In this document: piece by piece, positions 15,408 to 30,751 of the stretch | Position numbering within the stretch: position 1 is the stretch's first letter | How the letters are laid out: the number at the start of each line of letters is the position of its first letter | Assembly (NCBI GenBank): GCA_964428755.1 | Contig: CAYRYX010000001.1 | Coordinates: 533-31,283, forward strand | DNA: 30,751 nucleotides | Direction: 5' to 3' | Origin: an uncultured Bdellovibrionales bacterium | Lineage (GTDB): Bacteria > Patescibacteriota > Minisyncoccia > Moranbacterales > UBA1568 | The notes under the pieces: generated by a model | What the model saw: only the letters and a program-made list of their open reading frames with translations | Database searches by the model: none | Told to the model about the DNA's origin: nothing | Position numbers and translations under genes: made by a program

Positions 15408-16565
15408 ATGCGTATCTCTTATTCCGCCCTCGACACGTACCAGACGTGTCCGCTCAAGTACAAATACCGGGAAATCGACCGTATCAAAGAGCCGAAATCC
15501 AAGGAGGCCGTCTTCGGAACGCTTCTCCATTCGGTCATGCACTACATTCACTCCCCGGCTCTCGTATTGCCGACACTCGAGGAAGCGTTGAATTTCTTTT
15601 CACAAAATTGGAATGCCGATATCTGGGCGAGCGAGCTCGAGGAGCGCGCCGCTTTTTCACAGGGAGTGAAGATCATCCAGGACTACTATGCGAAACACGA
15701 CCCAGCTGATTTTACCATCGTCGATCTGGAGAGCCGATTCTCGATAGAGATCGGTGACGAGAAAAGCGGCACGCATATAATCGCCGGCATCATCGACCGG
15801 ATCGACAAGACCGCGGACGGGTACGAGATCATCGACTACAAGACCGCCAAGAAGATGCCGTCTCAGGAGACCGTAGATACCAACCTCCAGCTTTCGATCT
15901 ATCTCAAGGCGTTTCTTGATCGGTATCCGAAGGAGCGGGAGAACCTGGACAGCATCACCGTCTCGCTCTACTTCCTCAAGCACGGCGCCAAACTTTCGGC
16001 GACACGGACCGAGGAACAACTTGCCGAGCTCGACCGGATATTCCTCGAAGTGATCGCTTCGATCGAGGCGGGAAAGTTCGACCCGGTGCTTTCCCCGCTC
16101 TGCGATTGGTGCGGATATCAGAAACTCTGTCCGCTTTGGAAACACAAATTCGCAGAGGAGCGGAAGATGGACTCAATCGAAGCGCGTGCCGCCATCGACG
16201 ACTACATCGCCGCCAAAGAGGAGGCCGGCTCCGTGAAGCGGAAACTCGCCGAGCTCCAGGAGCGGATCTTCTCCTATATGGAAAACGAGGGGGTCGACCG
16301 GGTGTTCGGTGAACGGGGTATCGTCGGGAAATCGGTCCGGAAGACGTACAAGTACGACGAGGCGCGTCTCAAGGAAATCCTTGCGCCGCTCGGCCGGCTC
16401 GACGATGTCATGAAGATCGACGGTATCGCGCTCAAGAAAGTCTCAGGGGAACTTCCGCCGGCCGCGAAAAAGGAAATAGAGGAGGCGCGTGTCCTCGATA
16501 AGGAAAGCGTTTCTCTTTCGGTGAAGAAGGGATCGTTTCTCGATGAGGAGGATATCGTCCTATGA
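15408..16565 (+). CDS. PD-(D/E)XK nuclease, RecB/AddB/Cas4-like, with probable Fe-S cysteines
   Basis: SYSALDTYQTCPLKY, FGTLLH, GIIDRID, IIDYKT, QLSIY, CDWCGYQKLCP; C-terminal helical extension. Confidence 0.9.
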   Translation: MRISYSALDTYQTCPLKYKYREIDRIKEPKSKEAVFGTLLHSVMHYIHSPALVLPTLEEALNFFSQNWNADIWASELEERAAFSQGVKIIQDYYAKHDPADFTIVDLESRFSIEIGDEKSGTHIIAGIIDRIDKTADGYEIIDYKTAKKMPSQETVDTNLQLSIYLKAFLDRYPKERENLDSITVSLYFLKHGAKLSATRTEEQLAELDRIFLEVIASIEAGKFDPVLSPLCDWCGYQKLCPLWKHKFAEERKMDSIEARAAIDDYIAAKEEAGSVKRKLAELQERIFSYMENEGVDRVFGERGIVGKSVRKTYKYDEARLKEILAPLGRLDDVMKIDGIALKKVSGELPPAAKKEIEEARVLDKESVSLSVKKGSFLDEEDIVL

Positions 16566-16573
16566 TATGAAAA

Positions 16574-16603
16574 ACCGGAAGGGCGCATTGCGTCTCTTCC
16601 GGT
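16574..16603. terminator. hairpin between convergent genes
   Basis: accggaag-ggcgc-att-gcgtc-t-cttccggt. Confidence 0.6.
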
Positions 16604-16613
16604 ATCACGCGTA

Positions 16614-16967
16614 TCAGACGCTTCCTATGGAAAACGATCTGAAGTCGTCCTCTCCGTCGTCGTGTCGACCGTCTTCGTATAGCATCTCATACGTCCTTTC
16701 GATGCGGCCGAGAATCGTTTCCAGTCTGAGAATCAGGGAGATTTCTCCCATCATGGTCGAGAAGACCGCCACGTCACAGATGTGGTCGCTACGAGTGAAG
16801 CCGTTTTCCCTGTCGAGCGCCGCGATCGTTTTCGGATCCGACACATAGACGAATTCCCCTCCTCCGACCGATTCGGGGACACATATGGCGATGTCGAAAG
16901 CGCGTAACTCCGCCTTTTTCAGGGCATGCTTCCGCTCATCGGTGATGAGAATCCTTCTCACTTCCAT
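16614..16967 (-). CDS. hypothetical protein (~117 aa)
   Basis: AAGGAG RBS before MEVRRIL; no family recognised. Confidence 0.6.
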   Translation of the reverse strand: MEVRRILITDERKHALKKAELRAFDIAICVPESVGGGEFVYVSDPKTIAALDRENGFTRSDHICDVAVFSTMMGEISLILRLETILGRIERTYEMLYEDGRHDDGEDDFRSFSIGSV

Positions 16968-17066
16968 GGTAAGACACTCCTTTCCTGATTTGAAAAAACA
17001 AAAAACGGGAATCCCGATATTTCCATGATACCACATCCGCTTCCTCTCCGCTTTCTCGGTGTCGCG

Positions 17067-17861
17067 TCAGTCTTTCTCCGATTTCTCCGTCCGGGGAATG
17101 ACGATGATGTTCTTTTGCGGAATGTCGGTCGTCTTGAGGTGATATCCGGTCCCATAATCCCGGATCGCATCGAAAAGAACGGCCTCGTCGTACCGGTACG
17201 AGGCACCGCGACGGGTTCCCGGGTCGTTCGTGACGAATTCCCCCGTTTCGGCGTCGTATCCGATGATGACGAGCATGTGATAGACCGGTCCGGGAGGCGT
17301 GTAATTCGGGTTCCCGAGTTTTCGTCCGTCGAACGGTGCGATCACGATGTTCCCTCTCCGGATCGCGTTCGTGACATCGTCCCGCGTCACATCGTGGCGG
17401 ACGTTCGCCTCCACTTTGGAATACTCCCGGAAGAGAGTCGCGGTGTCTTCGGCGGAGGTGTCGTAGGCGTTTTCCCCGAACCGCTTTTCCGCGTCTGCCG
17501 AAATCGAACGGATACCCAGTTCGACGACCGTTTTTTCCGGAAGCGTTTCTTCGTTTCTCGCCCATGCGGCCGCCATGAGGATCGACGCTTCCTCGCAGGC
17601 ATTCTGGAAAACCGGATCGGACCACTGTGCCGAGGGCGCCTGCGAGGTGAACGGGACGACGTGCGTTATCGACTCCGGAAGTTCGGGTTCCACCTCCGGA
17701 ACGACCGGTTCATCCGGAATCCGGAGCGGTGCGACGGCGATCGGGTTCTCGATGGTAACCGACTGCTCCCATGTGACTTTCGGCGTATCCTCGCGAATCG
17801 GCCAAAACCACGCGACAGAAATCGCGGCGGAGGCGACGACGATCGATAAGAGTATCTTCAT
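17067..17861 (-). CDS. membrane-anchored C39-like cysteine peptidase
   Basis: N-terminal TM; VPFTSQAP, NACEEAS (Cys), YHMLVIIGYD (His), NDPG (Asp). Confidence 0.85.
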   Translation of the reverse strand: MKILLSIVVASAAISVAWFWPIREDTPKVTWEQSVTIENPIAVAPLRIPDEPVVPEVEPELPESITHVVPFTSQAPSAQWSDPVFQNACEEASILMAAAWARNEETLPEKTVVELGIRSISADAEKRFGENAYDTSAEDTATLFREYSKVEANVRHDVTRDDVTNAIRRGNIVIAPFDGRKLGNPNYTPPGPVYHMLVIIGYDAETGEFVTNDPGTRRGASYRYDEAVLFDAIRDYGTGYHLKTTDIPQKNIIVIPRTEKSEKD

Positions 17862-17921
17862 AGGATGTGATAGGATATCGCGACAGTATACACCCGATTC
17901 CCTCATCTCGGAAAATGAAAA

Positions 17922-17949
17922 GCCGCCAGGATACGATATATCCGGCGGC
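17922..17949 (-). terminator. intrinsic terminator after the small Zn-finger genes
   Basis: gccgcc-a-ggata...tatcc-ggcggc stem followed by tttt on the - strand. Confidence 0.6.
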
Positions 17950-17955
17950 GGTCCC

Positions 17956-18144
17956 TCAATAGGCGATTTTTTCCGGCATAAGGAGACTGCCGTCGCAGTG
18001 TTCGCCGTGCGGATCGTTGTGATCTTCGACGACGATATGCGTTTTTTCCCCGTGAATGGCGGCATCATCGATTTCGGTATTCCCCTTCCGATCCGAATCG
18101 ATGAGGTCGAGTTCTTTGCCGCACACCTGGCATATTCCTTTCAT
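17956..18144 (-). CDS. small putative Zn-binding protein (62 aa)
   Basis: MKGICQVCGK...HNDPHGEHCDGS; GGAG RBS; ATGA overlap with the upstream ORF stop. Confidence 0.65.
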   Translation of the reverse strand: MKGICQVCGKELDLIDSDRKGNTEIDDAAIHGEKTHIVVEDHNDPHGEHCDGSLLMPEKIAY

Positions 18145-18518
18145 GATCCCCTCCTGTTCGCGAAACGTTGTGATCGTGATTCCTTCTTTTTCCTCTTTTT
18201 GACTTTCATCTGGACGGATGAACCGGAGGAGCTCTTCTTCGCGGGGGATCCCATCCCGTTGTGCCTTCGGTCCTCCATGACGGCTTGTGCGGCGCGTTCT
18301 CCCAGGGGCGGTGAACGGTTGGCACTCTCGATCAATGTCTGAGCAACAAGAGGTGTCGTCTGCATCGTGAAGATACGTCTTGGATGTGACGGCTTTTCCG
18401 GCCCCATTGAAACGTTGATTTTTTTCAGACAGGCGTCGCAAAGCCATTGTCCGTCATTGAATCCATTGCCGTCTTCCTGTTCGCAGGCCTCGCATGCGCG
18501 TGGGAATGAGCAGTCCAT
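18141..18518 (-). CDS. putative Zn-ribbon protein with basic disordered tail (125 aa)
   Basis: AAGGAG RBS; CEAC...CDAC; the tail is low-complexity, so its frame is less certain. Confidence 0.5.
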   Translation of the reverse strand: MDCSFPRACEACEQEDGNGFNDGQWLCDACLKKINVSMGPEKPSHPRRIFTMQTTPLVAQTLIESANRSPPLGERAAQAVMEDRRHNGMGSPAKKSSSGSSVQMKVKKRKKKESRSQRFANRRGS

Positions 18519-18647
18519 GTGTTTCTCCTTCGCTCGGTTGTAAAAGAAAAGAATAGGATATCTGTACCAGGAAATCGCTCTTTTCGCAAGCCCGACTTGC
18601 CAAATGACGGTTTTCATGGCAGAATGGAGCTTCGTAAACAAGAGCAT

Positions 18648-19373
18648 ATGGAGAACAAGTCGGAGCGCGAAGCCATCCCTTTCCCCGTCCGTATCAATCG
18701 GTACCTTGCGCTGCGGGGTGTCGCGACCCGTCGCGCCGCCGAGAAGTTCATCGAGGAAGGAAAAGTGATCATCAATGGCAGGAAAGCGGTTCTGACCGAT
18801 CGCGTCCAGGAGGACGATGTCGTGACCGTGAAATCCATTCCGAAGCGCACGTATCGATACTTCGCCTACTGTAAGCCGCGCGGGATACTGACGCATTCTC
18901 CCCAATCGAAGACGGAGCGGGCGATAGCCGATGTCATAAACATTCCTGGTATATTCCCGATCGGTCGGCTCGACAAGGATACCGAGGGGCTGCTCATCCT
19001 GACCGACGATGGTCGTGTGACCGATCGGTTGCTTTCCCCGCGTTTCGACCATGAGAAGGAGTACGTCGCGACGATACAGGAGCGGGTCCGTCCGGACATG
19101 ATAGCCCGTCTTGCCGCGGGGCCGGATCTCGAAGACGGTCCGAGCAAGCCGTGTCAGGCATTTTCCCGCGGAGCGCATAGAGTGACGATCGTCCTCACCG
19201 AGGGTCGCAAGCACCAGGTGCGGCGCATGCTTTCGGCGGTCGGCGGTACGGTGACGGAGCTCGAGCGGGTCCGGGTCATGAATATCGAACTCGGCAGTCT
19301 CTCCTCCGGGGAATATCGTGCGATCACCGGCGCGGAAAAGGAGGAATTTCTCTCCGCGCTCGGTCTCCGGTAA
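18648..19373 (+). CDS. rRNA pseudouridine synthase, RsuA/RluB/RluF family, with S4 domain
   Basis: RINRYLA...RRAAEKFIEEGKVIING (S4), KPRG, GRLDKDTEGL, HEKEY, LTEGRKHQVRRM. Confidence 0.93.
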   Translation: MENKSEREAIPFPVRINRYLALRGVATRRAAEKFIEEGKVIINGRKAVLTDRVQEDDVVTVKSIPKRTYRYFAYCKPRGILTHSPQSKTERAIADVINIPGIFPIGRLDKDTEGLLILTDDGRVTDRLLSPRFDHEKEYVATIQERVRPDMIARLAAGPDLEDGPSKPCQAFSRGAHRVTIVLTEGRKHQVRRMLSAVGGTVTELERVRVMNIELGSLSSGEYRAITGAEKEEFLSALGLR

Positions 19374-19410
19374 AAACGGATCAAGAATAAAACGCTCTAT
19401 CAGAAAAGCT

Positions 19411-20871
19411 ATGGCAAAAGACCAGGTCGTCCTCCGGTTCGACAACGTCTCATTCGAATATGTCCATGACAAACCGATCCTCGACGGGGTCAGTTTCTCG
19501 ATGCGTACCGGATCGAAGTTTACGCTCATGGGACAGAATGGTGCGGGAAAAAGTTCGCTCTTCACGCTTATCACCGGAGAGGCACGCCCGCAGCAGGGGC
19601 GCATCTCAATCGACAAGGGAGCGACCGTCGCCATCGGTCGTCAGGTCATCCCTCGCGATGAGCTCGACTTGTCCATTTCGGATTTCTTCGCCCGATACTA
19701 TCGCGGCAAGGAGTGGGATCTTCCGAAGCATATCGCGGAGGTGCTTGAGGCGGTCAATCTTCCGCTTCCCCCGCTCAAGAAGAAGATCCGGGAATTTTCC
19801 GGTGGTCAGCAGGCGCGATTGCTTCTCGCTTCCGCGCTCATTCAGGACCCGGACATACTCCTCCTCGACGAGCCGACGAACAATCTGGATGCGGACGGCG
19901 TCGCGCACCTCACCTCGTTTCTCATGATGTATGACAAGACCGTGCTCGTCATCTCGCACGATGCGGATTTCCTGAACGCCTTTACTGAAGGCGTGCTCTA
20001 CCTCGATGTCCATACGCACAAGCTCGAGCAGTACGCCGGCGACTACTACGACGTGGTGGCGGAGATAGAGCGACGCATCGAGAAGGCGGAAAGCGAGAAC
20101 GTCCGTCTCGAGCGGACCATTCGCGAGAAGAAGGATCAGGCGAACGTCTTCGCGAACAAGGGCGGGAAGCTCCGTGCCGTGGCGAAACGGATGCGCGACC
20201 TGGCGGAAGAACTCGAGGAAAACAAGGTGGACGTCCGTCGTGAGGACAAGACGCTTCCCGCTTTCACTATTCCCTGTCCCGAGACGGTCGGACCGATCGT
20301 CACGATAAGGACCGTTTCCGTCATGGGACACTTCGGTCCGAGTATCGTCCCGGTGAACATCGAGCTCCGCAAGAACACGCACATGCTCATCTCCGGTCCG
20401 AACGGCATCGGGAAGAGCACCTTCCTCGAGTCGCTTGCCTCCGGGGACCCGGAGCGGGTCACGCTCGCGCCCGGCACGAAGATCGGTTACTACCGTCAGG
20501 ATTTCTCGACGCTTGATTTCGACCGGACCGCCTTCGAGGCGATAGAGGAAGTCATGGAAAAAGGAGAGAAGGAGGACGTGTATAAGGTCGCGACGCGGTT
20601 CCTGCTCCCCGCCGAACTCCTCAAGAACAAGGTGGCGAGCCTTTCCGAAGGACAGAAGGGACTGCTCCTCTTCGCGCGGCTCGTGGTGGAGGAGCCGAAT
20701 CTGCTCATCCTCGACGAACCGACGAACCATATCAACTTCCGTCACATCCCCGTCATCGCCGAGGCGCTCGACGCATACAAAGGTGCGATGATTCTCGTTT
20801 CGCATGTGCCGGACTTCGTCTCCCAGATCCGCATCGACGAGGAACTCGATCTCGGAAAGTATGCAGGATAA
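19411..20871 (+). CDS. ABC-F family ATPase
   Basis: Two ABC cassettes (GQNGAGKS/FSGGQ/LDEPTNNLD and GPNGIGKS/LSEGQ/LDEPTNH); no TM segments. Confidence 0.93.
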   Translation: MAKDQVVLRFDNVSFEYVHDKPILDGVSFSMRTGSKFTLMGQNGAGKSSLFTLITGEARPQQGRISIDKGATVAIGRQVIPRDELDLSISDFFARYYRGKEWDLPKHIAEVLEAVNLPLPPLKKKIREFSGGQQARLLLASALIQDPDILLLDEPTNNLDADGVAHLTSFLMMYDKTVLVISHDADFLNAFTEGVLYLDVHTHKLEQYAGDYYDVVAEIERRIEKAESENVRLERTIREKKDQANVFANKGGKLRAVAKRMRDLAEELEENKVDVRREDKTLPAFTIPCPETVGPIVTIRTVSVMGHFGPSIVPVNIELRKNTHMLISGPNGIGKSTFLESLASGDPERVTLAPGTKIGYYRQDFSTLDFDRTAFEAIEEVMEKGEKEDVYKVATRFLLPAELLKNKVASLSEGQKGLLLFARLVVEEPNLLILDEPTNHINFRHIPVIAEALDAYKGAMILVSHVPDFVSQIRIDEELDLGKYAG

Positions 20872-22117
20872 CTCGATACGATACGACGTGGCGGTCATCG
20901 GTGGCGGACCCGCCGGCATGATGGCGGCGGGACGGGCGGCTGCGCTCGGCGCGCGCGTCGTGCTTCTCGAAAAGAACGCCTCGCTCGGCGAGAAACTGCT
21001 CATCACCGGCGGCGGTCGGTCCAACATCACGAATGCGGAATTCGACCGGAACATCTTCCTCCGGAAATTCGGTCGTGCCTCGAAATTCCTCTTCTCCCCG
21101 CTCGCGCGATTCGGCGTGCAGGATACACTCGACTTTTTCGATGTACTCGGAATGCCGACAAAGATCGAAGCCGAGAAACGTGTTTTCCCGGTGAGTGACA
21201 GATCGCAGTCCGTCTTCGACGCGCTCTTGCGATATATGGATCAGGGTGACGTGACGGTGCTTCCTGGAGCGGAGGTGACCGGATTGGATGTTTCGGACGG
21301 AATGGTTTCCGGTATCCGCCTCAAGGCGGGTGGCGTGGTGCAGGCACGTTCGTATGTACTCGCGACCGGCGGGAAATCGCATCCGGAGACCGGATCGACC
21401 GGTGACGGATTCCGGTGGCTCGAAAAGATAGGACACACCGTCATCAATCCACGTCCGTCGCTTGTGCCGCTGCGCGTACGCGAGCGGTGGGTACGCGAGC
21501 TTTCCGGCGTCAGTTTCCCGGATGCCAAACTTACGGTCTTTCAGGATGGCAAGAAACAGGAGAGCCGGAGAGGAAAACTTCTCTTCACGCATTTCGGGCT
21601 TTCCGGTCCTCTAGCGCTCAACATGAGCCGCGGTATCGATGAGCTTCTGAAACAAGGAGCCGTGACCGTTTCGGTGGATCTGTTTCCCGGTCAGGATATC
21701 GGCGCGCTCGACAAGGAGCTGCAGATCATCTTCGATTCCCGGAAGAACAAACAGATACGGAACGGTCTGGATGGCTTTGTTGTTCCGTCGCTTGTTCCGG
21801 CGCTTCTTGAAATCACGGGTATCGATCCGGACAAACAGATAAACGCCGTGACACGCGAGGAGCGACTTGGATTGATACATGCCCTGAAAGACCTCCCGAT
21901 GACCGTGGAGGGGCTTCTGGGGGCTGATAAGGCGATTGTGACGAGTGGTGGCGTCGCGCTTTCGGAAGTGGATTTCAAATACATGCGGTCACGGCTTTTC
22001 CCGAATCTCTATCTCGTCGGAGACATCCTTGATATCGACCGTCCTTCCGGCGGCTACAGCCTCCAGCTCTGCTGGACGACCGGATTCGTCGCCGGAACCT
22101 CCGCTGCGGAAAAATAA
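20861..22117 (+). CDS. HI0933/YhiN/BaiN-family FAD-dependent oxidoreductase
   Basis: IGGGPAGMMAA, KLLITGGGRSNITN, ATGGKSHPETGSTGDG, FTHFGLSGP, VTSGGV, GGYSLQLCWTTG. Confidence 0.93.
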   Translation: MQDNSIRYDVAVIGGGPAGMMAAGRAAALGARVVLLEKNASLGEKLLITGGGRSNITNAEFDRNIFLRKFGRASKFLFSPLARFGVQDTLDFFDVLGMPTKIEAEKRVFPVSDRSQSVFDALLRYMDQGDVTVLPGAEVTGLDVSDGMVSGIRLKAGGVVQARSYVLATGGKSHPETGSTGDGFRWLEKIGHTVINPRPSLVPLRVRERWVRELSGVSFPDAKLTVFQDGKKQESRRGKLLFTHFGLSGPLALNMSRGIDELLKQGAVTVSVDLFPGQDIGALDKELQIIFDSRKNKQIRNGLDGFVVPSLVPALLEITGIDPDKQINAVTREERLGLIHALKDLPMTVEGLLGADKAIVTSGGVALSEVDFKYMRSRLFPNLYLVGDILDIDRPSGGYSLQLCWTTGFVAGTSAAEK

Positions 22118-22118
22118 A

Positions 22119-22145
22119 ACGCGCATCCTATTGGAGGATGCGCGT
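22119..22145. terminator. terminator hairpin between convergent genes
   Basis: acgcgcatcct-attgg-aggatgcgcgt (11-bp stem); T-run on the - strand. Confidence 0.7.
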
Positions 22146-22162
22146 CGCGCGAAGATGCTCGC

Positions 22163-23446
22163 CTAACCTGCGACTGCCCGGAACCCTTCCAGTGAGGCGA
22201 ATCGTCCGTCGTGAGCGTGACGGATTGTCGGCTCACTCTCGGTTACGGCGGAGGCGTTGCGTTTTGCGTCCTGTCGAATCTTCTGACAGCGCGGCAGTCC
22301 GTACATGAAATACGGACAATGTTTTTTTGCACTCAATGGACATGAATGTCCGTCGCAGGCGAATCCCTCTTTCGCCGTGCAGAAACGCTTCTCGTCGAGC
22401 GTCAACCTGGCGAGTTCGACGATCTGCGCGAACGAGAGATCCGTCGCCGGAACGAACGGAGCCGATGGCGACCCGTTGAGGATGCACATCAGATCCGGCT
22501 GGAACGACCAGACACTCCCGGGGACGCTTCCGGTCGGACTGAGGTCGCCGAATCGCCGTTCCTGCCGTTCACCACGGAGGAAGAGCTCCTCGCGGTTCAA
22601 GGCGCGCACGAGACCGGTGAGGTCCGTCCGCGTCTTGGCGTTGGTCAGGACGACGACATTTCCGGAAGGTTTCCGGACGATGGCGACATCCGCCTTCGCC
22701 CACGAAACGATGGCTTTCCCCATCATCGGGTTATCGCTTTCTATGGCGACGAGATCCCGTTTCCTCCCAAGCCGGTCGGTGAAATGAATCGTCTTCCGGC
22801 CCTGTTTCAGGGTTTCGACGGCTTCCTGGAACTTCGTCTTCTCCCATTCGACCGCTTCAAGGCCCTTGAGGAGCCAGGTGGTCTTGGTGTCCCCGTCCAA
22901 CATGAGGGCACCGATCGACTCGACTTCGAACGACGAATCCTTCGGGTCGCCGCGGTCGAGATAGGTCATGAGACCGAGAACGATCCAAAGAAGAGTCTCT
23001 TCCTGCCCGCCGAGCCAGTTCATATTCTTGACGATGTTCGCCAGAGAATATTTCGTGGCGCCGCCCTCGAGGTCGATCCGCGTCGCATAGGCGACGAGGG
23101 TTTCGGCTCTCGGGTCGTCGAATTCGGTGATGTGTTCTTTCAGGAATCGAAGCGCGAGACTCGCGGCGCATTCATTGTGTTTGCGCGCATGAGTCGGATC
23201 CGGGTGTTCATCGAATAAGCCTCCCCAAACACCGATCGGTATCAGGGCCGTGTCGCGCCAATGTTTCAACGCGATGCATGCGGGAACGCTGCTCCCGGCA
23301 TCATCGAAGAGGACTTGGGCGTTCCGGGCTCCACGGATACCGGCCTTTTCGCCGTACAACCAGAGGAGGACCATCGCGACGTATTCGTCGAAATGGGCCC
23401 AAAAATGTGTAACGAAAAACTTCCGTTGCTCGCGATTCGATTTCAT
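22163..23446 (-). CDS. hypothetical protein, possibly MYG1/DHH-like metallo-phosphoesterase, with Cys-rich C-terminus
   Basis: THFWAHFDE and GVWGGLFDEH resemble MYG1-type THxxxxHxDE and VGGxxDHH motifs; five Cys in the last ~60 aa. Confidence 0.55.
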   Translation of the reverse strand: MKSNREQRKFFVTHFWAHFDEYVAMVLLWLYGEKAGIRGARNAQVLFDDAGSSVPACIALKHWRDTALIPIGVWGGLFDEHPDPTHARKHNECAASLALRFLKEHITEFDDPRAETLVAYATRIDLEGGATKYSLANIVKNMNWLGGQEETLLWIVLGLMTYLDRGDPKDSSFEVESIGALMLDGDTKTTWLLKGLEAVEWEKTKFQEAVETLKQGRKTIHFTDRLGRKRDLVAIESDNPMMGKAIVSWAKADVAIVRKPSGNVVVLTNAKTRTDLTGLVRALNREELFLRGERQERRFGDLSPTGSVPGSVWSFQPDLMCILNGSPSAPFVPATDLSFAQIVELARLTLDEKRFCTAKEGFACDGHSCPLSAKKHCPYFMYGLPRCQKIRQDAKRNASAVTESEPTIRHAHDGRFASLEGFRAVAG

Positions 23447-23548
23447 GACAAAGCTCCTTGAAATGAGGAATCTTTCGATTCCTCGGGTGGGATGTTGCTT
23501 GTAAAGGCACTACGTCCGCCAATGTTCAGACATTGAAACAGACAGCGA

Positions 23549-23577
23549 ATAATAGCAGAGAAAGTGCTTTTTGTCAA
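23549..23577 (-). promoter_or_regulatory. sigma70 promoter
   Basis: TTGACA-17 bp-TATTAT with extended TG, upstream of ATG 23446. Confidence 0.7.
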
Positions 23578-23601
23578 TACTGAAGACGGCTTTTCTAAGC
23601 C

Positions 23602-23952
23602 TTACATGTTGTCTTTTCGTTGCACTTCGGATTCGCGCTCTGGTGAGAGATCCATCATTTCTCGGACATTCCAACCCTCGGCTTTCATGTCGCGCATGAT
23701 GTCCGTGATGCCCGCCTGATTCTCGCCATATATTTTGAAAGTCTGCTTGGAGCCGTTCACCACGACCACCATCTCGAATGTTTTGTCATTCAGCTTCTTG
23801 AGCTTCACGCTTTTCCCGCGAGCGCCGACATTCGCTTCGATGACCCCGGGAGCTGTCTCGACCCCGATCCTCCGGAACGCCTTCAATATATCTTTCGCGC
23901 CTTCGATGACCGTCGTGTGCGCTCCCCGTTCGTTGATATGCATCTTTTCCAT
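23602..23952 (-). CDS. hypothetical protein, DUF2103-like
   Basis: HTTVIEG...APGVI...SKQTFKIY pattern; family call is from memory. Confidence 0.6.
   Translation of the reverse strand: MEKMHINERGAHTTVIEGAKDILKAFRRIGVETAPGVIEANVGARGKSVKLKKLNDKTFEMVVVVNGSKQTFKIYGENQAGITDIMRDMKAEGWNVREMMDLSPERESEVQRKDNM
23906..23952. repeat. 47-bp direct repeat, copy 1 (5' end of the DUF2103-like gene)
   Basis: atgaccgtcgtgtgcgctccccgttcgttgatatgcatcttttccat, identical to 24807-24853. Confidence 0.95.
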
Positions 23953-24092
23953 AGTTTGAAAACCTGAAAATATCCGACTCTCTCCAAATCACGGTAGCAT
24001 GGAAAAGAAAAACAATCGATATCGCCGTCATCGTTTCAATCGATTCTTGATCGGTCAAAAAAAACGAGGAGAAAAGATCTCCCCGTGCATGC

Positions 24093-24701
24093 TCAGTCCC
24101 CAACAAATGCTGAGCGGAATCCATCCTCTGTCCAATATCCGGCGAAGAATCCACCGGATGGACAACAGTCCCAGCGGAGACATCCGACACAAGACTCCCC
24201 GACGCGAGCCGCCACCGCTTTGTGCCTGAGTTCGCGACTCGATTCGTGATACAGGGCGACGCTATCCCCGGGGAAAATCGGAAGCCCGCAAAGAGAACAT
24301 CTTGTGACATACCTACGGATATAGTTCATAAGACAAACTGGGCACATTTTCTTGTCGGCTATTCTGATGGTGGGAACCCCGTAGGCATCGAGCTGGTACC
24401 ACTTCGGTCCGTCGTGGCCGCATTCATTCCGAACAGTGCCTGCTGATCGTTCGATGATCCGTATCTCGTCGTTCGGTTTCGGCAAGGGATTTCGCTTCGG
24501 TCCTACGGACACGAATATTTTCTCACCGTCGGGACCGCAGACATCCGGAAGCTCCGATCCGGTTGACTCGTCCGTCTGTGGAGTATCGTTCCGAGTCGCG
24601 GATCTTTTCTTGAGGAATATCCAGAATGCCCTGAGGACAAAGAAGAGGAACGAGAATGCGGAGATGGCGAAAAGGAGATAAGCGAAATAATTGGCTTCCA
24701 T
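24093..24701 (-). CDS. membrane-anchored Cys-rich (multi Zn-finger-like) hypothetical protein
   Basis: N-terminal TM; CGH, CPVC, CSLC, CVGC-x4-CC. Confidence 0.75.
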   Translation of the reverse strand: MEANYFAYLLFAISAFSFLFFVLRAFWIFLKKRSATRNDTPQTDESTGSELPDVCGPDGEKIFVSVGPKRNPLPKPNDEIRIIERSAGTVRNECGHDGPKWYQLDAYGVPTIRIADKKMCPVCLMNYIRRYVTRCSLCGLPIFPGDSVALYHESSRELRHKAVAARVGESCVGCLRWDCCPSGGFFAGYWTEDGFRSAFVGD

Positions 24702-24806
24702 GATGTTTCCTTGGGTTGTGAAAGGACGAAACGGATCCTATTGAAAGGATGGAAAAATCTTGATTGAAATATGGCGTTTTGTCAATACCGGAAACAGTTG
24801 TTCTCA

Positions 24807-24853
24807 ATGACCGTCGTGTGCGCTCCCCGTTCGTTGATATGCATCTTTTCCAT
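24807..24853. repeat. 47-bp direct repeat, copy 2 (truncated gene start)
   Basis: Reads MEKMHINERGAHTTVIENNCFRY-stop on the - strand. Confidence 0.95.
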
Positions 24854-24870
24854 GCGGGTGATGTAGTTCC

Positions 24871-24941
24871 TTTCACTCCCCTCATTCTCTCAAAATTGCT
24901 CGAAAATGGGAAAGGGTTGGAGGGTGTCTTCGAAAGAATCA
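24871..24941. repeat. 71-bp direct repeat, copy 1
   Basis: 67/71 identical to 29289-29359. Confidence 0.95.
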
Positions 24942-24965
24942 GACTAATTCTTTCTTCACGATAAT

Positions 24966-25448
24966 CTACAGTATCCGCGCAACGACCTTGATATAGTTGT
25001 CGCTAAGCTCGTGATCCGTATCGGGCACCAGGATATCGCCTGGCTCGTCCTCCCGATCACCGTAGAGCACTGTCTGTTTCTTGGCACGGTGTTCCGGCGC
25101 GAGGTTGTCGACAATATCTTTAATAAATTTTGATCCTGCCAGATCGACCAGTGCCTTCTTGATCTTGTGATCGGTGAAACTGTAATGAGGAGTCATGGAT
25201 GCCAGGATGACGTGGCGACAAGGATGCTGCTGCGCCGTAAGCCACCCGAGAATCGCGCCAAGTGAGAAACCGAAAACAACGGCGTCCTTGTGTACGGGAA
25301 ATACCTGCGGTGACAGAGGCTTCTTCCAATCGACATTATTGAATACGACCTCGTACCCTTTTTTTCTCGCGACATCCGCCAATTTCCTGTACGCCTTTCG
25401 GCGACAGGTGTCTTCCCATCCCGGGATGATATGGAGAATCTTTTTCAT
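24966..25448 (-). CDS. minimal alpha/beta hydrolase
   Basis: HIIPGW oxyanion region, GFSLG nucleophile elbow, GDRED, TDHEL. Confidence 0.75.
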   Translation of the reverse strand: MKKILHIIPGWEDTCRRKAYRKLADVARKKGYEVVFNNVDWKKPLSPQVFPVHKDAVVFGFSLGAILGWLTAQQHPCRHVILASMTPHYSFTDHKIKKALVDLAGSKFIKDIVDNLAPEHRAKKQTVLYGDREDEPGDILVPDTDHELSDNYIKVVARIL

Positions 25449-25488
25449 GGTTGCGAGCAGAAAAGATGGCGAGCACCTTTTCTATAAA

Positions 25489-25520
25489 TGCTGCGGCTAT
25501 GGGACGAAGTGGGAACGTAT
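25489..25520. repeat. 32-bp direct repeat, copy 1 (att-like)
   Basis: tgctgcggctatgggacgaagtgggaacgtat, 28/32 identical to 28549-28580. Confidence 0.85.
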
Positions 25521-25553
25521 CTATTCTATCATACCGTGGGGGAAAGCCATCCA

Positions 25554-25583
25554 TTGACACGGGAAACAGATTCCTGGTATCGT
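25554..25583 (+). promoter_or_regulatory. probable promoter for the second M23 gene
   Basis: TTGACA-18 bp-TATCGT with extended TG. Confidence 0.45.
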
Positions 25584-25686
25584 TCCCCTGTCCCTTAACA
25601 ATGAAAGGAGTCCATCTTCTCCATCAAATCGAAGGAAAGCAACACCCCTCGTGCTGTTTTTTTTTGTCTTCTCCAAGGAGTCTGAA

Positions 25687-26913
25687 ATGAAGAATGCTAT
25701 CTTGGCACCACTCTTTTTCCTGCTGATACTCTTTTCCGGAAAGTCGTCGGCATCAATGGTCGAACCGGAAGCCGTCCCCTACGCCTACAATGGAAACACG
25801 TATACCAGCGTGATTGCGACGTTCTGCGCCTCAATCGGATACACGAACCACCTGTATTGCACCGGGGACGTGTACGCCGGAACGAACGACGATACGAGTT
25901 TTTCCTATCGTTGCGGAAAAGATTTGGAATACAACCATATGCTCGTCCACACCTACGATCCCGACGGCATCAAGGTCTATGATCAGGAAATGGGAAGTTG
26001 GTGGACTTTCTTCTCTTCCGGAAATACCTGCTCGGGATTTTCTGAAAGCACCCTTCTTACCAGTGAGCCTATCTATTACCAGCCGGTCTACGGTGAGTAC
26101 CCGACTGATACGGTACGCTTTGCTGCAAACTGGAGTTTGCCGCCCGACACGCCGTTTGGATTTCCGCTGCAAACGACGTGCAGCGGCGACCCTTGTACGG
26201 CTTACACGGCGGAAGTGTCGTCAGTGATGGATCAGTCGACGCTGGGGACAGGAGCGACGTACGAGTCCGGAGAAGACGGAGAAGTTGAGAGTTTCGAGGG
26301 AGAAATCGGGGATGTCGGCCCATATGCCAACAGTACATGTTACGCCAAATTCGACAGTTCTGCGTTCGGATCAAGCATAACTTACGTTGGCACAACGGGC
26401 ACGGGCAACGGATACTACCTGTGCTACAATAGCCATCCTGGCTACGACTATCCCGCCCCTCTACAGGAAGGAGAACGCATTGATATCAACGCGCCAGAAA
26501 GTGGAACCCTGTGCATTGCCACAACCGCTACCGAACCGGATGACCCTCCCGTGCTGTGGCGTGACACGACACGTTGTCCGCACGCGACAGCTGGTGGTAC
26601 GTCCTGGTCTGGCTACCACACTTTCTATATCATCCATGATGGATTGCAGATGAATGGAGTGGCAGGCAAGTACATGACGGTATTCCTGCACAACGACAGT
26701 CTGTCGAGCACCGTGCAAAGCGCCATTGAACAGAATGGCTACGCGGAGGTTTCGAAAGGTGACTTCATTGCCAAAGCAGGAGGATGGGGACCAAGTGGAG
26801 CAAATCACTATTCCTTGCACATGCATTTTGAGGTATATAAATGGAATGGCAGCAGCTGGGACCGCGTCGATCCATACGGGGATGGCGCGAACAACATCCT
26901 ATGGGCACATTGA
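25687..26913 (+). CDS. secreted Cys-rich protein with C-terminal M23 peptidase domain
   Basis: Signal peptide MKNAILAPLFFLLILFSGKSSA; HPGYD (HxxxD), FLHND, HMHFEV, VDPYG. Confidence 0.82.
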   Translation: MKNAILAPLFFLLILFSGKSSASMVEPEAVPYAYNGNTYTSVIATFCASIGYTNHLYCTGDVYAGTNDDTSFSYRCGKDLEYNHMLVHTYDPDGIKVYDQEMGSWWTFFSSGNTCSGFSESTLLTSEPIYYQPVYGEYPTDTVRFAANWSLPPDTPFGFPLQTTCSGDPCTAYTAEVSSVMDQSTLGTGATYESGEDGEVESFEGEIGDVGPYANSTCYAKFDSSAFGSSITYVGTTGTGNGYYLCYNSHPGYDYPAPLQEGERIDINAPESGTLCIATTATEPDDPPVLWRDTTRCPHATAGGTSWSGYHTFYIIHDGLQMNGVAGKYMTVFLHNDSLSSTVQSAIEQNGYAEVSKGDFIAKAGGWGPSGANHYSLHMHFEVYKWNGSSWDRVDPYGDGANNILWAH

Positions 26914-26941
26914 TTGTTGAATGGCGGCAACGACCGTAAAC

Positions 26942-26977
26942 AAAATCGTCTCTCCAGATGCCTGGAGAGACGATTTT
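26942..26977. terminator. bidirectional intrinsic terminator
   Basis: aaaatcgtctctccag-atgc-ctggagagacgatttt, 16-bp perfect stem between convergent genes. Confidence 0.85.
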
Positions 26978-27175
26978 TCTTATTATATCAAATAAGAGAC
27001 GGCTACTTAAGAAATTTAAAAGTGGAAAGGAAGCTGCCAAAAGTCTGATCAGAAACATTTTTCATATCGTCCTGTCCTCTCTCATACAGCCACACGAAGG
27101 CTCCCGCCGTAATAGCGATGATGACGAGGATTATGGTTCCTGGTAAGGCGGGGATTTTTAGATTGGCCATTTTTT

Positions 27176-28468
27176 TTAAAATGCATTATATAGAAAAGCA
27201 TTATCAATTATAAGTCTCAATTCCTTTGTCTTGGGATATAATCGCCAAATCGTAGGAGATTGGTGACCGATCGAAGAATAATTTACTTTATACAAAGAAA
27301 AAATCAAAGAATTATCAGGTAACCACTTATGTTCTGCAATAAAAGACTTTGTTCCTATGTTCATATCTGGAAATAGTGATGAAATCGTATACGAATCACC
27401 ATTATTTCTATCTCGCAATGTTAAATCATAATCAATACTTACTGTATTAATAGCGCCTGATGGATATATAAAAAAATTCTTATCTGGAGACAATTCAATA
27501 AATCCATACCAATTGAGTTGATTTGGAATAAAAACTTCATTTTCTTTATTTGTGCCTAATCTATTTTTAACAATCGTAACATCACCAGTTTTTTGTAATC
27601 CCCTGGGATAAATAATTGTTGAATTATCAAGCCAATCAGCAAAGAAAACATATCCATCATTGAATGGTTTGCTTACTTCTGATGATGAAATATCTACCAA
27701 CCGAAAAGCGTATGCGTTGGAAATCAAAATCTGATCATCGTTCGGTGACCATTTTATGATTTTAAAACTGGCATACGGGCCGCTATTTAGAAAAGTTTTT
27801 TTTACTTCTAAAGAATCATTTACTTTTTCAAGAAGTACCAATTTTTGTCCCATGACTGCGGCCGCGATTTTATCACCATTGTTTGACCATTGAAAATTTG
27901 TTATGCTTGTCGGCAACGAAAATACTTGTTGCTGCTCCGAATTCATATCCATCAAACATAAATCATACTTTGGTTCGATGGCTTGATTTGGAAGATTATT
28001 TTGATTATTTGCTTCAGCTATTTTCTGTAGCGTAACTTCTGAAAGACACAGGTAAGCTATGGTGTTATAAGCCGGATCTATTTCAGGACGTGAATAAAAA
28101 TTTTCATCAAAATTTGCTTCAATTTGAGGGCAGCCAGATCGAAAACAATCATTGTAATTATACCTAGTTGATACGTGGTTTGTTATTTGTTTTATTGAGT
28201 CTTTTTTTGATAGATCTAATAACCAAACATTACCATCTCTTACAAATGTCATTAGTGGTTTATCTTTAAAACGTTGTGTTATTTGATTCGTTCTGTCTTG
28301 CTCATTATTTTGTTTTAATTGACTGCTGATAGAGTTCTCTTGAATGGTTGTATTTTGAATTTCTAGTTGACCTTTTTCATACACCCACACAAATACACAA
28401 ACCGTCACTGCGATAGTAACAAGGATTATTGTCCCCGCCAGCGTCCCAACTTGTTCATTGAATTTCAT
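27176..28468 (-). CDS. membrane-anchored TolB/WD40-like beta-propeller protein in an AT-rich segment
   Basis: N-terminal TM; repeated WSxD/LSPD/WLPD blade motifs; visibly much more AT-rich than the flanks. Confidence 0.8.
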   Translation of the reverse strand: MKFNEQVGTLAGTIILVTIAVTVCVFVWVYEKGQLEIQNTTIQENSISSQLKQNNEQDRTNQITQRFKDKPLMTFVRDGNVWLLDLSKKDSIKQITNHVSTRYNYNDCFRSGCPQIEANFDENFYSRPEIDPAYNTIAYLCLSEVTLQKIAEANNQNNLPNQAIEPKYDLCLMDMNSEQQQVFSLPTSITNFQWSNNGDKIAAAVMGQKLVLLEKVNDSLEVKKTFLNSGPYASFKIIKWSPNDDQILISNAYAFRLVDISSSEVSKPFNDGYVFFADWLDNSTIIYPRGLQKTGDVTIVKNRLGTNKENEVFIPNQLNWYGFIELSPDKNFFIYPSGAINTVSIDYDLTLRDRNNGDSYTISSLFPDMNIGTKSFIAEHKWLPDNSLIFSLYKVNYSSIGHQSPTIWRLYPKTKELRLIIDNAFLYNAF

Positions 28469-28524
28469 AGGATTTCATTTTTTCTTACACGACAAATATT
28501 ATCATGAAAGCAAGTAATAAAAAA

Positions 28525-28540
28525 CCGCCTCGAAAGGCGG
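28525..28540 (-). terminator. intrinsic terminator
   Basis: ccgcct-ttcg-aggcgg followed by a T-run on the - strand. Confidence 0.7.
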
Positions 28541-28548
28541 AATTTATG

Positions 28549-28580
28549 TGCTGAGGCTCTGGGACGAAGTTGGAACATAT
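28549..28580. repeat. 32-bp direct repeat, copy 2 (att-like)
   Basis: tgctgaggctctgggacgaagttggaacatat. Confidence 0.85.
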
Positions 28581-28597
28581 TTTATGTAAAAGTTTCT

Positions 28598-29248
28598 TTA
28601 GTTGAAACTCAGCGACTGTATGATAGTTTGACCTATAGGTAAATTTTTCCACTCACTATCCATCATATCACCTGGAAGACGTTGAATGATCCAGAGTATC
28701 GTTTCATCAGACAAAGATATTGCGTAGGCATAATCTATTACGCCGCCATTCCCTGATTCTTTGCCGAGGTAGACTCGGTGGCCATTGATAGTTGTTTCAA
28801 GAGTTTGTATTATTTCTCCTGGGGCAGCTCCACCCACGAGATACTCATAAAGTTCTTGAGGAGCTTTGTATCCTTCAAATACGCCCATGCTCATCCAGAA
28901 GTTTTCTGTCGGAAAGTTTTTTGATCCCAACGTTATTCCTCTTTCCCCTCCAGCATCTGAGTATGATGAACTTAGGCCAAGCTCTAAATCATTCGGATAT
29001 CGAAATTGAAAACCATATTTCTTATCGGTGTACACTTTCCAGCTTTTAGTATCAATATTATTGTCTTGGACAGAAAAAAATTCTTCTTCACTGATCTTTC
29101 CCTCGCTTTGAACTATTGGGAATGAAAAAGAGACAGAGTCGATTTCATGATTAACGCGTTCAATTTTTCGAATAAGAAACAGCGAAGCAGCAGCGGCAAT
29201 AGTCGTGAGAAATATAAAAGCGATAAAAGGTCGAATCGTTTGTTGCAT
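28598..29248 (-). CDS. membrane-anchored PsbP-like hypothetical protein
   Basis: N-terminal TM; DTKSWKVYTDKKYGFQFRYP motif typical of PsbP-like surface proteins. Confidence 0.75.
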   Translation of the reverse strand: MQQTIRPFIAFIFLTTIAAAASLFLIRKIERVNHEIDSVSFSFPIVQSEGKISEEEFFSVQDNNIDTKSWKVYTDKKYGFQFRYPNDLELGLSSSYSDAGGERGITLGSKNFPTENFWMSMGVFEGYKAPQELYEYLVGGAAPGEIIQTLETTINGHRVYLGKESGNGGVIDYAYAISLSDETILWIIQRLPGDMMDSEWKNLPIGQTIIQSLSFN

Positions 29249-29288
29249 AGATTTATTTGCTGGGACGGAAGGTCATTTCATCGAACGA

Positions 29289-29359
29289 TTTCACTCCTCT
29301 CATTCTCTCAAAATTGCTGGAAAATGGGAATGAGTTGGAGGGTGTCTTCGAAAGAATCA
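29289..29359. repeat. 71-bp direct repeat, copy 2
   Basis: Begins, on the - strand, at the methyltransferase TGA stop. Confidence 0.95.
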
Positions 29360-29887
29360 CGCGGCTGGTTTCTTTGCGATGATCCACACTTCATGGAATG
29401 TATGCGGTCCGAGTTTGCGATGCATTCCATCATAGGAGGACGTCTCCTGTTTGACGATTTCCAAACCACCGAGCGCCCCGACTATTTCTTCGGCCGTATA
29501 TTTTGTCGGAACATCCAGTGTTTCTTCCGGGGAAAACGTAAAGATCTCCAATACTCCGCCAGGATTCAATGCATCACGAAGACGCGGAAGAAGTTTTCCG
29601 AGTGCGTACTCCTTCGGGAGAAACTGGATACTGTGCTGAGCGATGATGATGTCGTACGTTCCTGTCGGATTCCAGTCCTTGAGATCCGCTGAAACGTAGT
29701 TGATATTTTCGATATCTTGAAGTGGCGCCGGAGTTTCCTTTTCGATGTCGACTGCTTCCGCTTTCAACCCGCGTGCGGCGGCATAGAGAGAAACTAATCC
29801 CTGACCGCAGCCGAGATCAAGAAACTTTTTCGCGCCAGGGTTGAGTTTGAACAGGTGCGGATATGAATACAGCATACGGTATATCAT
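29357..29887 (-). CDS. class I SAM-dependent methyltransferase (TehB-like)
   Basis: FLDLGCGQG motif I, AVDI, YDIII, LNPGG; start may be 29875. Confidence 0.9.
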   Translation of the reverse strand: MIYRMLYSYPHLFKLNPGAKKFLDLGCGQGLVSLYAAARGLKAEAVDIEKETPAPLQDIENINYVSADLKDWNPTGTYDIIIAQHSIQFLPKEYALGKLLPRLRDALNPGGVLEIFTFSPEETLDVPTKYTAEEIVGALGGLEIVKQETSSYDGMHRKLGPHTFHEVWIIAKKPAA

Positions 29888-29900
29888 GTAAAAAATAAGT

Positions 29901-29931
29901 CGCCCTCCTGGTAGTGTAACCCAGGAGGGCG
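29901..29931 (-). terminator. intrinsic terminator
   Basis: cgccctcctgg/ccaggagggcg 11-bp stem followed by a T-rich tail on the - strand. Confidence 0.7.
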
Positions 29932-29969
29932 GTTTGTGAAAGGCTTTTTAGCTCTTTCGGAACAGCGTG

Positions 29970-30491
29970 CTATTGCGTCGCTTCCCGGCCAAGCGTCAAT
30001 TTGGCATCGACGCCGAGGTTGCTTTTGCAATTGCAGGTGCAACCCTTGTTGGTGCAGGAACAGCTGCCGGCGTTGGCAAGAGACGGCTCGGGCCACGCGA
30101 ACTCGTCGAGCGGACCAAAGAGCTGCTCGGCAAATGCCTTGGTGCGGGTGTAGCCTTCGAGCTCCGGCTTGTCGGACGGCGTGTGGTCGATGAATTCGCC
30201 GTTGAAGTCGTTGCAGAAAAAGCGATAGTGCACGGTATGGCAAATGAATTCATGCCACATGTCGTCAACGACCTTCGAAGGCGAACACGGCTCTTGCGAG
30301 ACCATGGCCACGTACAGGAAGCGCTTCATTTCCATGAACACAGCGCTGGCTTGGTCGAGGCTCATGCCGTATTTCTCGGCGAACCTTGCACAAAGACCAT
30401 GATGCTGATACTCTCCGATCCGACGCCACGCGTTCAGATCATGGGAAGGCACCCCTTGTTGCTGGGGAATTACTTCGCTACTCGTTTGCAT
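29970..30491 (-). CDS. glycine-rich-domain (GRDP)-like protein with Cys-rich tail
   Basis: EMKRFL...PSKVVDDMWHEFICHTVHYRFFC...FIDHTP family pattern; tail CSCTNKGCTCNC; GAGGAG RBS before ATG 30491. Confidence 0.75.
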   Translation of the reverse strand: MQTSSEVIPQQQGVPSHDLNAWRRIGEYQHHGLCARFAEKYGMSLDQASAVFMEMKRFLYVAMVSQEPCSPSKVVDDMWHEFICHTVHYRFFCNDFNGEFIDHTPSDKPELEGYTRTKAFAEQLFGPLDEFAWPEPSLANAGSCSCTNKGCTCNCKSNLGVDAKLTLGREATQ

Positions 30492-30573
30492 AAAAGAACT
30501 CCTCTTCGAGAAAAATATCAATGGGCCCATTGATATTGAGACAGAAGGACTCTCGTTCTTCAAGCCTCAAGAC

Positions 30574-30602
30574 ATCATAACCGGAATGCGATCTGCTGTC
30601 AA
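30574..30602 (-). promoter_or_regulatory. sigma70 promoter
   Basis: TTGACA-17 bp-TATGAT on the - strand. Confidence 0.7.
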
Positions 30603-30644
30603 TAGGAATCCGTGTTCGATCCCTACTATCCCTATACGAAAAAA

Positions 30645-30662
30645 GAGGCTCCGGAGAGCCTC
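30645..30662 (-). terminator. terminator of the tRNA gene
   Basis: gaggctc/gagcctc stem followed by 6 T on the - strand. Confidence 0.75.
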
Positions 30663-30672
30663 GATTTCAATG

Positions 30673-30745
30673 CTGGGGAGGTAGGGATCGAACCTACGGA
30701 ATGCCGCGTCCAGAGCGCGGTGCCTTACCACTTGGCTACTCCCCA
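30673..30745 (-). tRNA. tRNA-Gln (anticodon CTG), CCA not encoded
   Basis: Cloverleaf: acceptor TGGGGAG/CTCCCCA, D-stem GCC/GGC, anticodon stem CCGCG-CTCTGGA-CGCGG, T-arm GTAGG-TTCGATC-CCTAC. Confidence 0.97.
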
Positions 30746-30751
30746 AAATCA

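Follow-up and report, generated by a model that had tools for sequence, protein, structure and literature searches.

Why does a 71-bp sequence stand twice in the same orientation in the genome of an uncultured bacterium of the order Moranbacterales, once fused to the stop codon of a methyltransferase gene and once on the far side of a 4.35-kb block of apparently unrelated genes? The two copies lie in a stretch of 30,751 nucleotides (nt) of contig CAYRYX010000001.1 (G000:C1:533-31283; hereafter, the window), which belongs to a 1.04-Mb metagenome-assembled genome (MAG; G000) of 137 contigs. An earlier note on this DNA had taken the repeats for traces of insertion into a single intergenic spacer. 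In our reading, to which we assign a probability of about 0.6, the locus is an array of cassettes and small islands anchored at a tRNA-Gln gene and joined by site-specific junctions. Comparisons were made with 107 genomes of the same family and 301 genomes of the order (104 genera). tRNA genes were called with ARAGORN and Rfam, protein domains with Pfam and RNA folds with RNAalifold; the assembly check (X2) and the array variants in other samples (X7 and X8) were read from contigs of public sequencing runs, not from reads. Chance occurrence was controlled with 100 shuffles for the 29-nt core of the repeat and with reversed patterns for the two motifs, A and B, described below.

On recount, copy 1 (24871-24941) and copy 2 (29289-29359) are identical at 67 of 71 positions, and their setting is as the earlier note described it. 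On the minus strand copy 2 starts at the TGA of a 176-amino-acid (aa) methyltransferase gene (29357-29887), and copy 1 ends 17 nt before an ATG opening a 50-nt duplicate (98% identity) of the start of a 116-aa gene. The pair can be extended to 100 nt (24871-24970 and 29289-29388; 85% identity). The extra 29 nt are the last nine methyltransferase codons, matched in copy 1 by a decayed version (18/29 identical; binomial P = 3e-5): the true C-terminus reads VWIIAKKPAA-stop and the remnant L-stop-IIVKKELV-stop, the TAG of the remnant doubling as the stop of a 160-aa open reading frame (ORF). Identity drops from 94% to 62% exactly at the methyltransferase stop codon; because this step is so sharp, it suggests that the distal copy arrived together with a diverged methyltransferase. 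As part of the array reading, and with the same confidence, the 71-mers would be two copies of one right-end module, "methyltransferase end + motif A", with motif A fused to the methyltransferase stop. Two occurrences of the 29-nt core are found in the window and none in 100 shuffles. A search for further copies, which the earlier note had proposed, found no third 71-mer in the 1.04-Mb assembly, while the core itself, motif A, is present in 8/107 family genomes.

Such a pair could also have arisen by plain local duplication, the methyltransferase and its downstream region being copied in cis, one methyltransferase decaying to a 29-nt stump and genes accumulating between the copies. The extension of homology into the methyltransferase coding sequence fits this scenario, as does a parallel in another genome (L017, G013:C29:10728-12440), where two methyltransferase 3′ ends bracket genes for a 219-aa anchored and a 180-aa secreted protein; one of these ends belongs to an internally deleted methyltransferase (LDLGCGHG fused to the C-terminus), the other is interrupted where the contig stops, and motif A is absent. 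However, the step from 94% to 62% at the stop codon is not expected from uniform neutral decay, motif A is conserved in other genera without the methyltransferase, the block occurs in other contexts in other samples, and the intervening cargo is of foreign GC content, with B sites at its borders, so that we regard local duplication as quite improbable. The 71-mer was also considered as a target duplication of the spacer and rejected, since the boundary module is kept in other genera without the methyltransferase; neither terminal inverted repeats at the block ends nor a transposase (Pfam) was found. We read the repeat as a functional boundary module and not as what a single insertion left behind.

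A more trivial source would be a chimeric MAG contig joined through the repeat from two co-existing strains. The assembly comprises 137 contigs, related contigs break at tRNA-Gln, and strain variants co-occur in public samples, all of which would favor such an error. Against it, single contigs of run X2 cross each repeat copy with its flanks (24824-25290 and 27236-29681) with 0-1 differences, runs from two different studies each contain about 90% of the sampled window words, and no exact match between the two copies is longer than about 26 nt, which is shorter than the k-mers that assemblers usually end with. The assembly at the repeats thus looks sound and error unlikely; the chimera itself we consider highly improbable. 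MAG contigs of the family break within or beside tRNA-Gln at window position 30751, 6 nt past the 5′ end of the tRNA gene, and at the ends of L027, L042 and L047, which is consistent with strain heterogeneity of the arrays fragmenting assemblies.

The 4.35-kb block, regarded in the earlier note as one insert, is instead a mosaic of at least three modules. It is subdivided by two B sites (28549-28576 and 25489-25516), and its GC content is not uniform (40% in the 216-aa gene, 33% in the 430-aa gene and 51-53% in the rest). The features of the whole array, in minus-strand order from tRNA-Gln, are as follows:

22118-30671: variable array, 8.5 kb behind tRNA-Gln(CTG)
30672-30745, minus strand: tRNA-Gln(CTG), called by ARAGORN and Rfam (tRNA, 60 bits), 3′ end ...CCTCCCCAGC(A)
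30662-30645, minus strand: terminator hairpin after tRNA-Gln
30624-30614, minus strand: inverted copy of the tRNA T-arm, AGGGATCGAAC, the truncated 5′ end of a noncoding element X
29357-30602, minus strand: cargo of island 1, comprising a promoter, the 173-aa gene and the methyltransferase gene
upstream of the 173-aa gene, minus strand: promoter TTGACA-17-TATGAT
29970-30491, minus strand: 173-aa gene
29357-29887, minus strand: 176-aa S-adenosylmethionine-dependent methyltransferase (Pfam Methyltransf_23/25)
29289-29388, minus strand: repeat copy 2, the last 29 nt of the methyltransferase gene followed by the 71-mer
71-mer of copy 2, minus strand: TGA + 26 nt + motif A (29330-29302) + GAGAGGAGTGAAA
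29258-29287, minus strand: tail2, CGTTCGATGAAATGACCTTCCGTCCCAGC(A), attachment-site (att)-type mimic of the tRNA-Gln 3′ end, closing island 1
28549-29248, minus strand: cassette of a 216-aa membrane-anchored protein (gene 28598-29248; ATG 9 nt beyond tail2)
28576-28549, minus strand: site B, GTTCCAACTTCGTCCCAGAGCCTCAGCA, ending the 216-aa cassette
25517-28548, both strands: middle module of a terminator, the 430-aa gene, a bidirectional terminator and the 420-aa gene
27176-28468, minus strand: 430-aa beta-propeller-like gene
26942-26977: bidirectional terminator between the 430-aa and 420-aa genes
25651-26913, plus strand: 420-aa gene, weakly M23-like
25516-25489, minus strand: second B site, GTTCCCACTTCGTCCCATAGCCGCAGCA
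24966-25448, minus strand: 160-aa gene, Pfam matches at chance level only
24871-24970, minus strand: repeat copy 1, the decayed methyltransferase remnant (24970-24942) followed by the 71-mer (motif A at 24912-24884); tail absent, 17 nt (GGAACTACATCACCCGC) running into the next feature
24853-24804, minus strand: 50-nt 5′ fragment of the 116-aa gene
24093-24701 (gene), minus strand: 202-aa Cys-rich cassette, then a terminator
23602-23952, minus strand: intact 116-aa gene
after the 116-aa gene and before the flank: 427-aa gene
20804-22117: conserved HI0933-like flank

The more widespread of the two motifs is B, a 22-28-nt site (GTTCYAACTTCGTCCCAGAGCC followed by TCAGCA) placed after a stop codon, with the next ATG 8-17 nt further on. 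It is present in 51/107 genomes of the family and 74/301 of the order (27/104 genera), and absent from the reversed controls. B sites cluster on one strand; 14 arrays lie downstream of a co-oriented tRNA-Gln(CTG or TTG), the opposite orientation being never observed. Neither B nor the tails (22-29 nt long) contain an internal inverted repeat, and the possibility that B is coding sequence of the opposite strand was dismissed, as no window ORF covers it. Rows of co-oriented single-gene cassettes bounded by the site are found mainly in relatives, the window's own array being mixed (two B sites, two A modules and one plus-strand gene). Isolated B-type sites also exist outside tRNA-Gln arrays (G000:C13:11583-11604, corresponding to L058 7584-7611; L059 7990-8019; L057 13704-13732), each after the stop codon of an accessory gene and followed by a terminator.

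Homology between cassettes breaks at the end of this site. Members of the 116-aa cassette family from three genera are homologous from about 20 nt before the ATG through the end of B and then diverge, while in the 165-aa cassette family homology starts right after CCCAGC. Identical downstream sequence is also found behind different left partners, with homology beginning 1-5 nt after CAGC; for example, TGAAATCGAGGCTCTCCGGAGCCTC (29 nt, 100% identity) comes next both after tRNA-Gln in the window and after a B site of G056. The 3′ part of the site follows the tRNA: variants behind tRNA-Asp(GTC) in G008 and tRNA-Ser(GGA) in G003 keep the B body and end in TCCCCGCCA and CTCTCCGCA, respectively, matching the 3′ ends of those tRNAs. 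In the window, tail2 ends in CCGTCCCAGCA and the tRNA in CCTCCCCAGCA, so that the far boundary of the island partly repeats the tRNA 3′ end in direct orientation. In G054 a B site immediately precedes the homologue of the 202-aa gene, and homologues of the 430-aa protein are found in the arrays of G001 and G055.

Motif A, the core of the 71-mer (TTCCCATTTTCNAGCAATYTTGAGAGAAT), was detected in four genera, often twice per contig on the same strand, and never in the reversed control; where a tRNA-Gln is present on the stretch as well, it always precedes motif A and is co-oriented with it. About 15 nt past motif A there is a 28-29-nt tail with a GTTC start and a CCCAGC(A) end, resembling the end of the tRNA; it is present after copy 2 and missing after copy 1. 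B is the short form of the same junction as motif A plus tail. A full-length motif-A element stands directly behind tRNA-Arg(TCT) in a metagenome contig (L071, 450-691), its tail ending in CCTCCCCGCA.

The invariant positions of motif A (TT.CCA, a 17-nt spacer and TGaGAG.AT) amount to two hexamers and a TG and form an extended -10 promoter pattern, and judging from this pattern motif A may be an outward-reading promoter. A structured RNA was also considered for the 71-mer and motif A and was not retained: RNAalifold on 17 and 8 copies gave a hairpin of 6-10 bp with consensus energies of -1.8 and -4.9 kcal/mol and 0 compensatory pairs, and neither sequence matches Rfam.

These properties lend themselves to a purely regulatory reading, in which motif A is a promoter, B is a 3′-untranslated-region or leader element, and the variation results from homologous recombination between short repeats and from natural transformation. 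The promoter-like, unfolded motif A agrees with it, as do the position of B between stop and start codons, the terminator sometimes following B outside arrays, and the fact that most arrays have no linked recombinase. It leaves unexplained, however, that the sites are anchored at tRNA-Gln with a single polarity, that B variants match in their 3′ parts the tRNA upstream of them, whichever it is, and that the duplicated tRNA-downstream sequence begins exactly behind the core; moreover, a homology of 22-28 nt is very short for RecA-driven exchange. We consider this reading unlikely and infer that recombination is site-specific rather than homologous.

The states of the locus in relatives and in other samples bear on the same point. 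G003, of the same genus, is colinear with window positions 14076-22119 and carries the 116-aa gene about 95 bp after tRNA-Gln(CTG); it lacks the segment 23962-30664, including the methyltransferase, as well as the 427-aa gene, so that the 116-aa gene alone lies between tRNA-Gln and the flank. Upstream of this tRNA-Gln there are prfB-, ftsE- and ftsX-like genes and a gene for an HD-domain protein, recognized by eye from their translations. The 116-aa gene of G099 and that of G002 stand behind an unrelated gene. The only full methyltransferase orthologue among the 41 relatives searched, in G005 (70% identity), stands behind a tRNA read by eye as tRNA-Ala. Since the methyltransferase is never found beside the 116-aa gene, and its G005 orthologue sits behind another tRNA, it is itself cargo and not a fixed neighbor. 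The earlier note had reconstructed, by deleting both repeat-bounded blocks, an ancestral methyltransferase-spacer-"DUF2103-like" junction. None of the four other carriers among the family genomes has the methyltransferase adjoining the 116-aa gene, relatives do not support the junction, and the specific reconstruction fails within the genomes searched because no genome shows the empty locus. The domain label also has to be given up, the 116-aa protein having no Pfam match at E<=10 bar one at chance level. The more general proposal, a hotspot of insertion and rearrangement hit at least twice, is supported, with many events.

In G001 the order is tRNA-Gln, a 1.8-kb island, motif A with a tail2 (90% identical to that of the window), motif A with B, a propeller gene and a 427-aa gene. 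The ends of the island resemble those of the tRNA-proximal island of the window (83% left, 90% right), and both the tRNA and the motif A-tail2 unit precede the same 35 nt (100% identity), forming an attL/attR-like pair around the 1.8-kb island. In public runs X7 and X8 positions 28716-30467, with the 216-aa, methyltransferase and 173-aa genes, are absent: depth is zero over the whole cargo segment of island 1, and the 216-aa cassette is missing too. In X8 AGCAAAAAG connects motif A to a B variant, after which the sequence continues at position 28553; copy 1 runs there into a tail2-like sequence, CCCAGCA and the terminator that stands behind the tRNA in the window. The same block is found in other contexts in other metagenomes.

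We propose that the 8.5-kb array behind tRNA-Gln(CTG) arose by repeated site-specific integration, and later reshuffling, of small recombinase-less elements. Each would end in an att-type site composed of a conserved arm, either the B body GTTCYAACTTCGTCCCAG or a tail starting with GTTC, followed by 7-10 nt matching the acceptor 3′ strand of the target tRNA (..CCCAGC for Gln); crossover would take place at or just after this core, and the tRNA-Gln 3′ end is presumably the primary attachment site. Some elements would additionally carry the unstructured motif A (TTCCCA-17 nt-TGaGAGAAT) about 15 nt upstream of the tail. Copy 2 would then close the tRNA-proximal island with the 173-aa gene and the methyltransferase, while copy 1, with the decayed stump of a diverged methyltransferase, would close a distal cassette group and have lost its tail. 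The A part of the repeat would be either a crossover region or a sequence kept by selection. The loss of the copy 1 tail and the 50-nt gene duplication require extra events, probably illegitimate ones. What the data show directly is the layout of the array, the conservation of both motifs and their association with tRNAs, the homology breaks at the core and the natural variants in other samples; the site-specific mechanism, the enzyme and the promoter function of motif A are inferred.

Several observations weigh against the array reading. Copy 1 has no recognizable tail, and because of this its junction, at least, came from some other event. To the right of the core there is no conservation, and the two-fold symmetry of classical serine- and tyrosine-recombinase core sites is missing. 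Excised or circular forms are unseen in the contig-only data. Judged as a promoter, motif A agrees with the sigma-70 consensus at only 8/12 positions and is not called by a promoter scan, and no transcript downstream of it appears in RNA contigs, although these cover only the 173-aa gene and a few others and so do not bear on motif A. No recombinase is recognized by Pfam in the window array (22118-30671), nor in any scanned array ORF. The single serine recombinase of the window's own genome lies at the edge of contig C19, where it overlaps a tRNA-Asp 3′ fragment (by eye), and serine recombinases and B do not co-vary, the former being present in 33/51 B-positive and 36/56 B-negative genomes.

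A large serine recombinase acting in trans is nevertheless the lead candidate for the array enzyme, a lead and not a result. Such enzymes are encoded in 69/107 family genomes. In G008, G019, G055, G011 and G052 the array is headed by a serine recombinase gene of 500-590 aa that abuts or overlaps the 3′ end of tRNA-Gln, and in G120 one heads a B array at a contig end. The tRNA-Gln-adjacent enzymes form two clades (54-78% identity within one and 88% within the other). G011 and G052 have a common element of about 10.5 kb whose distal end is a B-like tail; an A-like motif seen there by eye was abandoned, the likeness being lost on alignment. Serine recombinase genes overlap a tRNA 3′ end in antisense in L056 (G008:C9), L053 (G019:C17), L093 (G055:C2), L074 (G011:C2), L075 (G052:C77), L091 (G003:C20) and L089 (G000:C19); the tRNA concerned is tRNA-Gln in five genomes and tRNA-Ser(GCT) in G003.

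Tyrosine recombinases were considered as well. One Xer-like enzyme is encoded in nearly every family genome, located elsewhere than the arrays and unlinked to them, which gives a tyrosine recombinase no support as the array enzyme. A second, diverged tyrosine recombinase of about 378 aa is present in about 10 genomes, mostly beside tRNA-Ala(CGC); in five of them (L076, L077, L078, L080, L082) it lies about 1.8 kb from this tRNA. In G011 and G052 it is located inside the recombinase-bearing element, between tRNA-Gln and the B array.

The inverted T-arm box (window 30614-30627) is the 5′ end of the conserved noncoding element X, which spans roughly 130-200 nt and ends in a near-exact copy of the tRNA-Gln 3′ end. 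Full copies are present in L027, L041, L042, L046, L049, L050, L051, L055 and L060, the window copy being truncated by the promoter of the 173-aa gene. Its consensus fold is supported, with 30 pairs, 93% of cells paired and 12 compensatory pairs versus 6.2 +/- 1.3 in shuffles; Rfam yielded no match.

The 173-aa gene (Cys-rich tail CSCTNKGCTCNC; transcript contigs over 29965-30555) gives by a wide margin the top transcript of the region in two activated-sludge metatranscriptomes, with a contig depth of 29-59 versus 2-5 for its neighbors, and the transcript ends fit the TTGACA-17-TATGAT promoter. At the other end of the array, the 50-nt duplication (23903-23952 and 24804-24853, 98%; codons 1-16 of the 116-aa gene) flanks the 202-aa cassette on both sides, and the sequence that comes after the gene fragment (24774-24804) is similar to the promoter region that lies beyond the intact gene (23566-23596). 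Exact-protein look-ups of the 160-aa protein and of two candidate starts of the 420-aa protein returned no record.

Genomes of the candidate phyla radiation (CPR; Patescibacteria) are roughly 1 Mb in size and are thought to be poor in mobile elements, and our literature search found no description of such arrays in CPR bacteria. We tentatively suggest, at somewhat under even odds, that Moraniibacteriota, and probably Patescibacteria more widely, possess a gene-capture platform of their own, analogous but unrelated to integrons. A trans-acting recombinase, perhaps one of the large serine recombinases whose genes overlap these tRNA genes, would insert single-gene cassettes at tRNA-Gln and, in variant form, at tRNA-Asp and tRNA-Ser, and motif A would serve as a mobile promoter driving the next cassette. 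If this is true, a tRNA-anchored cassette system conserved across the order would be a main route by which accessory genes, including those for methyltransferases, hydrolases, toxin-like and surface proteins, are gained and swapped. It would also supply a short recombination site of defined sequence, perhaps together with its recombinase, whose use as a genetic tool could be examined. The reading of the window locus itself is corrected, the methyltransferase being cargo and the repeat a functional boundary module.

Among known systems, a transposon with target-site duplication does not fit, the repeat here being 71-100 bp long and imperfect, with neither terminal inverted repeats nor a transposase. 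Closer are the tRNA-targeting integrative islands, their non-autonomous derivatives, the cis-mobilizable elements (CIMEs), and tandem accretion at tRNA or tmRNA genes; these islands likewise lie at a tRNA 3′ end, carry a partial copy of this end at the distal boundary and form tandem elements; here, too, integrase-bearing relatives are found at the same tRNA in other genomes (G008, G019, G055, G011 and G052). However, the present units measure only 0.5-2 kb and often hold one gene, their arm is common to the whole order, the window array contains no integrase, and the junction sites are highly conserved rather than decaying.

The staphylococcal cassette chromosome elements (SCC/SCCmec), moved by CcrAB/CcrC at the 3′ end of rlmH, resemble the array in their serial insertion at the 3′ end of a conserved gene, in the short direct repeats that separate arrays, and in the many cassettes without a recombinase, presumed to be moved in trans by a serine recombinase. 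Here the target is tRNA-Gln, the elements are much smaller, and the putative link to a serine recombinase consists only in adjacency in relatives.

The integron, including integrase-less clusters of attC sites (CALINs), is the other close parallel. It differs in that no IntI is present and Pfam finds no recombinase in the scanned array ORFs; the site here is 22-28 nt long, conserved in sequence and non-palindromic, whereas attC is an imperfect palindrome of 57-141 bp with RYYYAAC/GTTRRRY boxes; cassettes land at a tRNA gene, at its 3′ end; and several cassettes have their own promoters and terminators, some genes lying on the opposite strand. The likeness is in the architecture: a polar, same-strand row of mostly single-gene cassettes of unrelated functions, each ending in a conserved site, apparently added at one fixed chromosomal position and found in different orders across genera, with noncoding and promoter-like cassettes among them, as also occur in integrons.

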